From IMG/VR virus record IMGVR_UViG_3300012953_000147, positions 1 to 29,599 of that record: DNA of 29,599 nt; one strand, given 5' to 3'. Shown here in pieces: positions 20,448 to 23,612 of the stretch. Each line of letters begins with the position of its first letter. Positions within the stretch are counted from its first letter, which is position 1. The DNA comes from a virus (lineage: Duplodnaviria > Caudoviricetes). Position numbers and translations under genes: made by a program. Below the pieces are notes generated by a model. The model saw only the letters and a program-made list of their open reading frames with translations, did not search any database and was not told where the DNA came from.

Positions 20448-21588
20448 ACCAACTGGTATGACAGTGTTCAATACGAACAAGGTCAATACTAAGAAGCAAC
20501 CAATGTTTTTTGGTGCTCCATTAGGAGTACAGAGATACGATACATACAAGTATCCTACCTTTGACCGATTGACTCAACAACAGTTGGGTTATTTCTGGAG
20601 ACCTGAAGAGGTATCACTTCAGAAAGATCGTTCAGACTATGCACAACTAACAGATCAACAGAAGCATATCTTTACTTCTAATCTGAAGTACCAGATCATG
20701 TTAGATAGTGTACAAGGTAGAGCACCAGGTATGGCATTCCTTCCTTACTGTTCTTTACCAGAACTTGAATCTTGTATGGAAGTGTGGTCATTCATGGAGA
20801 TGATTCATAGTAGATCTTATACTTACATAATTAAGAACGTTTATTCAGATCCATCAGAGGTATTTGATCAGATCTTAGATGATGATAAGATATTATCTAG
20901 AGCATCATCCGTTACTAAATCTTATGATGACTTTATAAACTATGCTCAGTCATGGGGTCAAGGTAACTTATGGAAACAAGATTCTAAAGGATCCCCATCA
21001 GCAGTATGGACATTGAAGGATCTAAAACGTACACTTTATAGAGCAGTCGCTAATGTTAACATCCTTGAAGGTATTCGTTTTTACGTGTCTTTTGCTTGCA
21101 GTTTCGCTTTCGGTGAGCTCAAGCTTATGGAAGGGTCTGCAAAAATCCTTTCCCTCATTTCCAGAGACGAATCACAGCACTTGGTTCTTACACAACAGAT
21201 TTTAAAGAACTGGTCTCAAGGTGATGACCCTGATATGTTAGAAGTTATTGAGGAAGAGAAGGAAACTGTTATTCAAATGTTTAAGGATGCAGTAGATGAA
21301 GAGAAAGCATGGGCAGACTATCTGTTTCAAGATGGTAGTATGATAGGATTAAATGAGAGACTACTAGGACAGTATGTTGAATGGATTGCTAATAGAAGAA
21401 TGAAAGCAATTGGTTTTGAACCTATCTATGATGTGCCTTTGAGAAATAACCCACTCCCTTGGACTGAGCATTGGCTCAACTCCAAAGGTCAACAGAATGC
21501 TCCACAAGAAACAGAGATAGAATCTTATGTTGTAGGTGGCATCAAGCAGGATGTTAAAAAAGATACTTTCGCAGACTTCTCATTATGA
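20428..21588 (+). CDS. nrdB: class Ia ribonucleotide reductase beta subunit
   Basis: FWRPEEV, LDSVQ, EMIHSRSY, EGIRFYVSF, DESQH, QETEIESY. Confidence 0.97.
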   Translation: MTAVQSEPTGMTVFNTNKVNTKKQPMFFGAPLGVQRYDTYKYPTFDRLTQQQLGYFWRPEEVSLQKDRSDYAQLTDQQKHIFTSNLKYQIMLDSVQGRAPGMAFLPYCSLPELESCMEVWSFMEMIHSRSYTYIIKNVYSDPSEVFDQILDDDKILSRASSVTKSYDDFINYAQSWGQGNLWKQDSKGSPSAVWTLKDLKRTLYRAVANVNILEGIRFYVSFACSFAFGELKLMEGSAKILSLISRDESQHLVLTQQILKNWSQGDDPDMLEVIEEEKETVIQMFKDAVDEEKAWADYLFQDGSMIGLNERLLGQYVEWIANRRMKAIGFEPIYDVPLRNNPLPWTEHWLNSKGQQNAPQETEIESYVVGGIKQDVKKDTFADFSL

Positions 21589-21830
21589 TTTCAGTTTTTG
21601 AATTACAACTCGCAAGAGATTTTCTATTCGGTTCATGTCCACCAGTATATACTTTACCTGGTACATGGACTAAGTGTAATGCACTTATACCACACTACAA
21701 TGCCAATCCAAACATCACGTTTGGTATATCAGTTGCAGTAATCACAATATTACTAGCAGGTTTTGGAGTGTACAAAGCATTCTTTAACAACAAAGAACTA
21801 GCAGACCCTTGGGATGATCACGACGATTGA
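21585..21830 (+). CDS. psbN: PsbN-like membrane protein with N-terminal extension
   Basis: Single TM helix then GVYKAFF...LADPWDDHDD, matching the PsbN Y-x-A-F...L-x-DP-F/W-EE-H-x-D tail. Confidence 0.7.
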   Translation: MISVFELQLARDFLFGSCPPVYTLPGTWTKCNALIPHYNANPNITFGISVAVITILLAGFGVYKAFFNNKELADPWDDHDD

Positions 21831-22357: not shown

Positions 22358-22932
22358 TGGATTTTATTACAGAGTATGCAGTAGAGGATGAAGTCTGTGA
22401 TGGACTTATGACTTTATATAAAGAAGTTGAAGCATCAGGTAAAGGTTGCCAAAAAGGTACTGTAGGATCTCATAATCAAGTAGATGAATCCTACAAGAAG
22501 TGTACTGATTTATTCTTTAATGATATTCCTAAATCAGGTGTTGAGTATCACCCTAGATTTAAAGACATTGAATACTTAAATCATTTAAAAGAAAGTTCTG
22601 AAGATTATAGTAAGAAGTATCTGTATGGTAGAGAGATAGTATTTCATAGTCATCCTAAGTTTCAATACTATAAACCTGGCGAAGCATTTTATGTTGAACA
22701 CTTTGATGCTTCAGGTCCTGAACAAGGTAGAGTAGTTGCTTGGATTACCTATCTAAATACTCTTACTGATGGAGGTGGTACATATTTTACCTACCAAAAT
22801 CATACTGTTGAACCTAGAAAAGGTAAGACAGTCTTCTTTCCCGCAGGTTATACTCACGCACATAGAGGTGTAGTATCACCTACTCAAGAAAAATTTATCG
22901 TAACTGGATGGTTCGCATGGAACATGAAATAA
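22357..22932 (+). CDS. 2OG-Fe(II) oxygenase (prolyl-4-hydroxylase-like)
   Basis: HFD...YLN...GGGTYF...FPAGYTHAHRG...KFIVTGW. Confidence 0.88.
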   Translation: MDFITEYAVEDEVCDGLMTLYKEVEASGKGCQKGTVGSHNQVDESYKKCTDLFFNDIPKSGVEYHPRFKDIEYLNHLKESSEDYSKKYLYGREIVFHSHPKFQYYKPGEAFYVEHFDASGPEQGRVVAWITYLNTLTDGGGTYFTYQNHTVEPRKGKTVFFPAGYTHAHRGVVSPTQEKFIVTGWFAWNMK

Positions 22933-23111
22933 ACCCCTCACAAGACAAACCTTTAACAGAAGAATACCAAAGAAAGGCAGAAGAACGTTATGAACAACTC
23001 CTATCCGAGTATGATACCTCAGAAACTGAGTCAGCTGGACTCCATTTTCTCTGGGAGCAAGGAAAAAAGTCTCAAAATGTTACTAAAGATACACAAAAAC
23101 TTGATAAATAG
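22917..23111 (+). CDS. hypothetical protein
   Basis: Short ORF from ATG 22917; its 3' end overlaps regulatory elements. Confidence 0.5.
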   Translation: MEHEINPSQDKPLTEEYQRKAEERYEQLLSEYDTSETESAGLHFLWEQGKKSQNVTKDTQKLDK

Positions 23112-23129
23112 ATGTGGGTATGCTAACAT
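23078..23129 (+). promoter_or_regulatory. NtcA-like box plus overlapping sigma70-like and late promoters
   Basis: TGT-N10-ACA at 23078-23093; TTGATA(23101)-17 nt-TAACAT(23124) with extended TG; ATAAATA 23104-23110. Confidence 0.5.
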
Positions 23130-23137
23130 ACCTATGT

Positions 23138-23180
23138 CGTTCAACCTCATTAGAGGTCGCAAGTAAGCCGACTCGGAACG
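23138..23180 (+). ncRNA. glutamine riboswitch-like aptamer 1 (glnA / Downstream-peptide family)
   Basis: P1 CGUUC/GAACG, P2 ACCUC-auua-GAGGU, junction CGCAAGUA; matches the CGUUCA...CG.AAGUA...GAACG pattern. Confidence 0.7.
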
Positions 23181-23183
23181 GAG

Positions 23184-23380
23184 CGTTCATCCCATGATAC
23201 CACTGCTACTAGCAACTGCTTTAGTCTGTGCCGATATATCAGAAATGGTAGATCGTGTTAATGCAAAACAAGACCTTACCCTTCGTGAGAAGGAAGAGAT
23301 CATTGCAATATATCAGATTCATTTAGTAGAGGCAACAGGACTGGTATGCGACTGGGACGCAAAAGCCGACTGAAGGAACG
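23184..23380 (+). ncRNA. glutamine riboswitch-like aptamer 2, split by an ORF in the P2 loop
   Basis: 5' half CGUUCA-UCCCA (23184-23194); 3' half UGGGA-CGCAAAAGCCGACUGAAGGAACG (23353-23380). Confidence 0.6.
23194..23373 (+). CDS. 59-aa protein nested within aptamer 2
   Basis: MIPLLLATALVCADISEMVDRVNAKQDLTLREKEEIIAIYQIHLVEATGLVCDWDAKAD*; GGAG at 23180-23183. Not in the ORF track. Confidence 0.65.
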   Translation: MIPLLLATALVCADISEMVDRVNAKQDLTLREKEEIIAIYQIHLVEATGLVCDWDAKAD

Positions 23381-23415
23381 GATGTAAAAATCCAATTACT
23401 TTAGGAGAAAACCAA

Positions 23416-23547
23416 ATGGCACAAGTCACATATCGCGGTGTTAAATATGACACTACCGACAAGTCAAAGAAAGACTTGAAAGAAAACGTACAGCAACTAC
23501 ACTATCGTGGGTTAAACCATGACAAGAAAGTTACAGTTTGTGCGTAA
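23416..23547 (+). CDS. YRG-repeat small protein (DUF4278-like)
   Basis: MAQVTYRGVKYDT...LHYRGLNH...; strong AGGAG SD. This protein type is typically found downstream of cyanobacterial glutamine riboswitches. Not in the ORF track. Confidence 0.8.
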   Translation: MAQVTYRGVKYDTTDKSKKDLKENVQQLHYRGLNHDKKVTVCA

Positions 23548-23568
23548 ACCTACATACTTGTATTTGTT

Positions 23569-23597
23569 AACACACCCTTTACAGGGTGTGTTTTTTT
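23569..23597 (+). terminator. Rho-independent terminator
   Basis: AACACACCCT-TTAC-AGGGTGTGTT-TTTTT. Confidence 0.88.
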
Positions 23598-23605
23598 ATG
23601 CTACA

Positions 23606-23612
23606 ATAAATA
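23606..23612 (+). promoter_or_regulatory. late promoter for talC
   Basis: ATAAATA between the terminator and the talC SD (AAGGA). Confidence 0.6.

Follow-up and report, generated by a model that had tools for sequence, protein, structure and literature searches.

How can a complete protein gene and two units resembling a glutamine aptamer share one stretch of phage RNA? The question is raised by positions 23138 to 23597 of a viral record of 29,599 nucleotides (IMG/VR IMGVR_UViG_3300012953_000147), the whole of which we call the window. The 29.6-kb window encodes T4-like DNA polymerase, helicase and ribonucleotide reductase genes, together with psbN-like, 2OG-Fe(II) oxygenase and transaldolase genes, and the locus is that of a cyanomyophage, flanked by nrdB and talC. 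The psbN-like open reading frame (ORF; 21585-21830, Pfam PsbN, E = 2.7e-10) lies directly 3' of nrdB. A first-pass annotation had described two separate tandem aptamers, the second enclosing a 59-codon ORF; all of its coordinates were verified base for base.

Layout of the leader

All features described here are on the plus strand. A sigma-70-like promoter, likely early, is present at 23101-23129 (-35 TTGATA, -10 TAACAT), and the predicted transcription start (approximately 23135-23137) is located 1 to 2 nt 5' of the aptamer. A promoter pattern precedes the element by at most 55 nt in 215 of 260 loci, compared with 7 of 227 background windows, and mostly lies 7 to 8 nt before CGTTCA. The CGTTCA of unit 1 (23138-23143) contains the outer P1 5' strand (23138-23142), whose predicted partner, 23376-23380, is favored by cross-unit covariation of the linchpin pair. 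It is followed by the outer P2 hairpin (23144-23157; 5 bp formed by arms 23144-23148 and 23153-23157, with a 4-nt loop) and by the outer J2/3 (CGCA) with the 5' E-loop strand AGTA (23158-23165), in which C23160 is the linchpin base and is predicted to pair with G23381. The 5' arm of the shared P3 duplex (23166-23173) has 23364-23371 as its predicted partner, giving six Watson-Crick pairs and two C-A appositions. The inner P1 hairpin, GAACG-GAG-CGTTC, occupies 23175-23188; its G23181 is predicted to pair with C23360, and it includes GGAG (23180-23183), the candidate Shine-Dalgarno sequence (SD) of the nested ORF.

The last base of the inner P2 5' arm, TCCCA (23190-23194), is the A of the start codon of the nested 59-codon gene (23194-23373; ATG 23194-23196, stop TGA 23371-23373), which belongs to the PHROG 504 family and whose product ends in WDAKAD. 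The two inner P2 arms lie 158 nt apart. The segment 23353-23363 comprises the 3' arm TGGGA (23353-23357), the inner J2/3 (CGCA, with linchpin C23360) and AA, and 23364-23381 comprises the P3 3' arm, the 3' E-loop strand GAA (23372-23374), the outer P1 3' strand and linchpin G23381. The last codons and the stop of the ORF overlap the P2 3' arm, J2/3, the P3 arm and the E-loop strand. An alternative compound hairpin, predicted for the ligand-free state, spans 23370-23404 (23370-23375 with 23399-23404, and 23380-23383 with 23390-23393). Downstream are an SD (23404-23407), a 43-amino-acid DUF4278-like gene with two YRG motifs (23416-23547) and an intrinsic terminator (23569-23592; 23569-23597 in all) with a 10-bp stem and a T run. 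A second sigma-70-like promoter (10/12, extended -10) at 23578-23607 overlaps the terminator and lies 5' of talC.

The octamer AGCCGACT occurs twice in the window, at the two units only, and the folding z-score of 23130-23420 (-1.28) is unremarkable. Two runs of one study yielded RNA contigs that span 23143-23348 at a depth of around 5 and with three differences; none was found over 22900-23085, and a DNA contig of that variant continues upstream. This coverage is a weak hint only of transcription from the element.

Distribution of the element

Three pattern scans of viral contigs returned at least 360 loci. With the window, these yielded 329 core matches, of which 36 were incomplete or duplicates and were dropped. 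The remaining 293 complete, distinct loci included 5 that were badly parsed, leaving 288 cleanly parsed loci, and 7 canonical doublets, leaving 281 for analysis. As a control for bias, 140 loci were fetched via the ORF protein alone, with no RNA pattern. The whole element was present in 133 of these, while 5 were cut by contig ends and 2 had a linker insertion; L488 and L489 in this set were misparsed as having a long outer loop. The element region also matched 346 records in a phage collection (280 Synechococcus phages, 36 "Cyanophage" entries, 22 Prochlorococcus phages and 8 marine viruses). Sequence matches on this scale, together with the protein-seeded loci, place the element far beyond what would be expected by chance. 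Marine and other aquatic cyanomyophages commonly carry it, among them the cultured models P-SSM7, P-SSM2, P-HM2 and S-PM2. A GTDB pattern scan found the element in 0 of 120 loci, with a pattern too loose to speak on cellular genomes. Because the loci are related and the tree was built on short proteins, the counts given below overstate the number of independent events.

Across the 281 loci, the inner P2 interior is mostly 11 to 43 nt or 138 to 212 nt long, with a single case of 65 nt. The layouts of the P2 loops (outer/inner) are short/long in 132 loci, short/short in 70, long/long in 45 and long/short in 20; the outer loop could not be parsed in 14. The seven canonical doublets (L253, L311, L305, L329, L339, L348 and L167) have full E-loops in both units and could serve as controls or mirror an ancestral state. 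L048 is a three-unit array in which the P3 arms of the last two units pair across units only. The gene context 5' of the element is widely variable (L007 and L119), and L119 seems to have another structured leader region immediately 5' of its promoter. In L015, L028, L040, L108 and L498, an additional hairpin-like insert of approximately 25 to 30 nt separates the aptamer from the downstream SD.

Cross-unit pairing predicts a single nested fold

The solved glutamine-I aptamer contains a pair between G23 and C60, the base that follows P1 (available text of PMC11477058, PMC5393176 and PMC6212724), and the singlet glnA units in the accessible part of supplement 5 of PMC2864571 show this linchpin pair, or its flip, within the unit. 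In the phage elements, base 23 of unit 1 forms a Watson-Crick pair with the base after unit 2 in all 281 loci (249 C:G and 32 G:C). The reciprocal pair, between base 23 of unit 2 and the base following unit 1, is present in 274, 6 of which are flipped to G:C; the seven misses comprise three C-A, one G-U and three likely misparses. Linchpin pairing within the units was found in 242 and 240 of the 281 loci, i.e., it fails in about 40. On a tree of 188 nested proteins, the partners of the outer linchpin changed seven times each, and all seven changes were joint.

The E-loop is divided in the same manner in 281 of the 288 cleanly parsed loci. Unit 1 has the 5' strand, which the parser required, and never the 3' strand; unit 2 has the 3' strand, with a 5' strand in 7 of 288. 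The P3 arms fall into 35 arm-pair types that pair across units, and none of 1,000 partner shuffles did as well; the mean duplex energy was -3.67 kcal/mol, compared with -2.29 kcal/mol with shuffled partners. The commonest type (94 loci) is unable to form local hairpins, and the same is true of most P3 types. When the nested fold was compared with two local folds, it had the lower energy in every one of the 67 ORF-less loci that could be evaluated, 3 of the 70 having been left out for unequal P3 arms. In the window, it wins by 3.6 kcal/mol only, and the P3 octamers, which could also make 2-bp local hairpins, are ambiguous on their own, without the homologues. In the ligand-free ensemble, the probabilities of outer P1 and cross-unit P3 were at most 0.03, and that of inner P1 in the window was 0.30. 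The low outer P1 and P3 values would fit a ligand-dependent P1, without proving it.

Given the cross-unit linchpin, the divided E-loop and the 35 cross-pairing P3 types, a single nested fold of the glutamine-I type with two cores is the best reading of the RNA. The two separate aptamers of the first-pass annotation were not upheld: P1, P3, the E-loop and the linchpin pair all span the units. Comparative analysis shows a predicted outer core in which the 5' half of unit 1 joins the 3' half of unit 2 and which amounts to a complete glutamine-I aptamer. The predicted inner core, which combines the 3' half of unit 1 with the 5' half of unit 2, is circularly permuted and has no E-loop. The same comparisons show both cores to share, as predicted secondary structure, a single P3 duplex, with the inner core sitting in the outer L3.

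A selected gene in the P2 loop

ORFs with an ATG 3 to 6 nt into the P2 arm and a frame open over at least 85% of the loop were found in 188 of 190 long inner loops and in 63 of 65 long outer loops, the latter among 267 loci with a parseable outer P2. At this composition, 50 codons would stay open by chance with a probability of 0.027; the other frames are mostly closed. With codons that overlap the aptamer excluded, dN/dS was 0.25 (65 disjoint pairs) and 0.14 (22 pairs). These substitution patterns show that the nested ORF behaves as a real gene under purifying selection, in agreement with the conserved frame that had been proposed. The stem around it is conserved as well. Of 188 loci, all keep inner P2 pairs 1 to 3 across the ORF, 185 keep pair 4 and 169 keep pair 5, and several types of pair occur. 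Among 94 disjoint tree pairs, double changes were compensatory in seven of eight cases at pair 4, seven of seven at pair 5 and six of eight at pair 6, some of them being one-pair register shifts; the distant arms covary, as anticipated. P2 closure was better than in synonymous shuffles of the ORF in 37 of 40 sampled loci (0.95 versus 0.78). Splicing or excision of the ORF was also considered; it was rejected because ORF-skipping joints were found in DNA runs, and the ORF-less forms exist as DNA.

The nested protein has a hydrophobic N terminus and two invariant cysteines, and all members have at least two. PHROG 504 contains 597 clusters of near length; three longer homologues exist. The best protein match of the window's ORF is P-SSM7_205 (67.8% identity). 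In P-SSM2 the nested ORF is present and unannotated (L483:1258-1407; 245213-245362 of the P-SSM2 record). No Pfam family (83 members searched) or NCBIfam family was matched, and there was no relative among PDB sequences (best E = 0.18) and no match among PDB folds (best Foldseek E = 2.7, best Z = 5.8). Neighbors in the Atlas are unnamed and are viral wherever taxa are recorded, and only cyanophage relatives stand near the top of the BFVD matches. AlphaFold2 predicts a two-helix hairpin between both cysteines (pLDDT 82), a Cys-helix-helix-Cys pattern that brought a possible saposin-like half domain into consideration. The saposin family is absent from the Pfam hits of the 83 members and from the listed fold matches, of which the best had the Z of 5.8. 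A lipoprotein or signal peptide reading, which the hydrophobic N terminus might suggest, is disfavored by the residue before the cysteine, by eye mostly T, S, D or A. Two of three outer-loop ORFs tested belong to PHROG 6471 and have a weak likeness to the inner ORF (probability 43%).

A further gene was observed in two contigs (L626:1521-2111 and L627:1521-2111, the records of L496 and L501). Here, a 591-nt insert in the inner P1 hairpin loop, closed by its own stem (pair probabilities 0.68 to 1.0), holds a 190-codon homing-endonuclease-like gene with a GIY-YIG-type motif seen by eye and no Pfam hit; a fragment of the gene matches PHROG 314 at E = 4e-4. Counting this one, three loops of the element can carry a gene.

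How closely the nested gene is tied to the aptamer bears on an alternative in which the double aptamer controls the DUF4278 gene only and the ORF, sitting in a tolerant loop behind the same promoter, is translated largely regardless of glutamine. The inner ORF is absent in 91 of 281 loci, L012 and L037 have near-identical downstream flanks with and without it, and an ORF may occupy either P2 loop or both. The loops accept cargo, as the homing-endonuclease-like gene indicates, and L2 was swapped for a tetraloop in a crystal construct (accessible sections of PMC5393176). The burial of the AUG and the SD are widely variable too: zero, one, two and three AUG bases are paired in 22, 80, 23 and 63 of the 188 loci, respectively (in the window, the A only), and GGAG is present in 98 of the 188 inner-ORF loci and in none of the 63 outer-loop ORFs. 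The GGAG that had been annotated as the SD of the nested ORF therefore holds for those 98 loci and is missing in the other 90. On the other hand, the AUG always lies 3 to 6 nt into the P2 arm, and in most loci the alternative helix and the stop of the ORF overlap. The GAG linker, which creates the SD, is present in 100 loci with the ORF and in 0 of 91 without it, an association to which shared lineage contributes. Among the 140 protein-seeded loci, no member of the family turned up outside the element, the 7 that lack a whole element being those with contig ends or linker insertions. We regard such an uncoupled ORF as rather improbable and favor a gene whose translation is linked to the fold.

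Aptamer class and predicted glutamine recognition

The glnA-type origin first suggested is supported. Unit 1 of the window matches RF01739 with 34.5 bits (E = 1.5e-5), just under the gathering score of 35. No RF01739 match was obtained at unit 2 of the window, and an Rfam scan of the window gave nothing at the gathering score. On 12 homologous loci, RF01739 reached at least 35 bits in 8, the best score of 41 being in the nested alignment; at L127, Rfam itself chooses the nested alignment (41 bits, with a 39-nt insert in L3). Unit 2 of natural ORF-less homologues scored 33.3 to 37.2 bits (seven loci, S-PM2 included), and the expectation that the model would match once the loop was short is supported by these natural homologues. 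The Downstream-peptide model that had also been put forward (RF01704, glutamine-II) did not fit: it scored 23.1 bits on the window against a cutoff of 33, with six non-standard pairs in the 3' helix, and its best homologue, at 31.1 bits, was also below 33.

Within the glutamine-I three-way junction of P1, P2 and P3, the P2 and the cross-unit P3 covary; the P1 strands are invariant, partly fixed by the search patterns, and P1 itself shows no covariation. The E-loop at the base of P3 is present in the outer core (AGTA, 23162-23165, with GAA, 23372-23374) and absent from the inner core. C1, G22, C58, G59 and the long-range pair, which contact glutamine in solved structures (available portion of PMC6698751), are present in both cores. 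The outer core quite probably binds glutamine, and the inner core may well do so, a prediction that we hold with moderate confidence.

The missing inner E-loop and the window's Rfam score below the gathering cutoff would suit a different reading, in which the fold is real and glutamine binding has been lost from one or both cores, with a structural role for the inner core or a changed ligand. The same can be said of the marine picocyanobacterial hosts, which, according to the accessible text of PMC6212724, carry the glutamine-II class rather than glnA. The retention of the glutamine-contacting bases in both cores (PMC6698751, as available), the compensatory flips of the inner linchpin and a downstream gene that is the usual DUF4278 target argue against such a loss, and we consider it unlikely. 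Two independent tandem aptamers, as first annotated and as in the pseudo-cooperative doublets of the literature (157 are counted in section 28 of PMC9481103), agree with the separate alignment of each half to RF01739, with the separate rows that such halves have in the available part of the published glnA alignment and with the seven viral loci with complete E-loops in both units, but are largely refuted by covariation and very improbable, since within-unit linchpins fail where the outer cross pair never does, each half has one E-loop strand only, and most P3 types cannot fold locally.

Downstream gene and expression platform

The 43-amino-acid protein matched DUF4278 (PF14105) at E = 2.9e-5 and 24.8 bits, just under the cutoff of 25.3. 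This was its sole Pfam match, nothing was found in NCBIfam, and the DUF4278-type assignment made at first pass stands. Of 222 downstream ORFs, 163 have YRG within their first 14 residues; among the 30 others listed, most have it further in. In L124, L125, L131 and many more loci, the downstream protein has an extra N-terminal segment of about 22 residues before YRG. In the sections available, PMC6316151 describes DUF4278 as covering the N terminus of IF17, reported as stabilizing and dispensable for IF17 function, and describes the control of glutamine synthetase in picocyanobacteria as unclear. Modulation of glutamine synthetase by a phage microprotein, as first suggested, is a lead.

The C:G linchpin class has 193 loci with a downstream gene. 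In these, a CUUY-RG stretch whose last base is the first G of the downstream SD offers an alternative partner to the end of P3 and the 3' E-loop strand. The CUUY anchor is missing in 44 of the 193, which were left out of the pair counts. In the other 149, the variable pair of the alternative helix is G-U in 77, A-U in 51, G-C in 21 and A-C in 0, and the next pair is U-A in 96, U-G in 26 and C-G in 19. G59 and G60 make a second small hairpin in 179 of the 193. The alternative helix excludes the outer core, and therefore a switch exists. In the G:C class, the anti-SD begins at the linchpin base, and freeing it raises SD access in 26 of 29 loci; such an arrangement of anti-SD and linchpin has been postulated for gifB (PMC6212724). 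Computed SD access in the C:G class, window included, showed no net change (0.37 versus 0.39; 32 up and 24 down of 193), and a shorter folding window gave the opposite direction (71 down, 11 up). By analogy, the downstream gene of the C:G class is likely to be on with glutamine. The C:G orientation of the linchpin is that seen in the glutamine-II crystal structure (PMC6698751, portion available).

We propose, with moderate confidence, that the leader of this cyanomyophage mini-operon, whose transcript would start at the sigma-70-like promoter, is a nested double glutamine-I-type aptamer with a gene in the inner P2 loop, and that high glutamine turns the DUF4278 gene on and the enclosed gene down. 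Binding would, somewhat more probably than not, free the downstream SD, as in gifB. That it also sequesters the SD and start codon of the nested ORF is a closer call, to which we lean slightly against. GGAG overlaps the inner G59 and the inner linchpin base, and repression of the nested ORF by glutamine is plausible from these overlaps. Because the ORF overlaps aptamer strands, a ribosome on it must unfold both cores; the incompatibility of translation and folding noted at the outset thus holds as a steric point. Since the alternative helix has the stop codon in its 5' strand, a terminating ribosome could also free the downstream SD, so that the logic would be coupled rather than a clean either-or. 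A broader model is tentative, and we think it possible rather than probable. Here the element, a permuted aptamer nested in its parent, would be a cooperative two-site glutamine sensor with the loop genes as a second input. Bound to glutamine, it would silence the nested gene and free DUF4278; without ligand, ribosomes would unfold the sensor, and the stop in the anti-SD helix would set the output. On this model, many of the glutamine riboswitches published as "tandem" would be single folds, and the loops would be landing sites for new genes, including the homing endonuclease.

Relation to known RNAs

The closest known system is the glutamine-I riboswitch (RF01739), including the Synechocystis gifB/IF17 leader (PMC6212724). 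The element shares with it the P1/P2/P3 junction, E-loop, linchpin pair and pocket bases, as well as a DUF4278-type downstream gene and a candidate anti-SD beside the linchpin. It differs in that its outer aptamer holds a second, circularly permuted core in L3, and in being phage borne, with a whole gene in a P2 loop. It thus reads as a glutamine-I riboswitch variant with a strand-swapped double core, predicted to bind the ligand, and a selected gene in its loop. The tandem glutamine doublets (PMC2864571 and PMC9481103, as far as available) are the same sequences, and half-units of the element type are separate rows in the 2010 glnA alignment. In its accessible parts, Weinberg 2010 (PMC2864571) notes glnA tandems, with wide gap columns in L2 and L3 of the alignment, and Sherlock 2022 (PMC9481103) terms the glutamine doublets pseudo-cooperative. 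The published doublets are separate aptamers in series, whereas the element has strand exchange between units and one expression platform.

Glutamine-II (RF01704; PMC6698751, available sections) resembles the element in its C:G long-range pair and small DUF4278 targets and, like the inner core, has no E-loop. It crystallized as a dimer in which two molecules exchange strands, whereas the exchange in the element is intramolecular and under selection; unlike glutamine-II, the element has no pseudoknot helix after GGAACG, and the window's RF01704 score is subthreshold. Table 1 of PMC9481103, in the part available, places the c-di-AMP riboswitch among single-RNA two-site riboswitches. Like the element, that riboswitch has two pockets in one fold and is possibly cooperative; it has another ligand and another fold, and the element was apparently built from a duplicated glnA unit. 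The fold of the c-di-AMP riboswitch is pseudo-two-fold. Group I introns carry ORFs in peripheral loops, e.g., phage T4 td with I-TevI. As in the element, a gene is nested in a loop of a structured RNA and its start region is tied up. Unlike those introns, the element is a ligand sensor, its cargo is a small two-Cys helical protein and it shows no sign of splicing.

Glutamine riboswitch hits have been described in phages (PMC9964418 and PMC9004378), the available text of which gives no detail of a nested ORF or cross-pairing, and in cellular genomes (PMC12379486, same limit); the accessible part of PMC9971707 adds nothing on the nested layout. A full-text literature search, with partial coverage of earlier glutamine riboswitch work, returned no description of an ORF in a glutamine aptamer or of cross-unit pairing.

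The element is real, widespread and structurally more unusual than it first appeared; its function is less settled. In these phages, published doublets read as two aptamers in series are one nested fold, and the aptamer escapes standard Rfam scans because one of its stems encloses a protein gene under selection. With S-PM2 as a natural ORF-less control, the element provides a handle on whether and how lytic cyanophages read the nitrogen status of their hosts.
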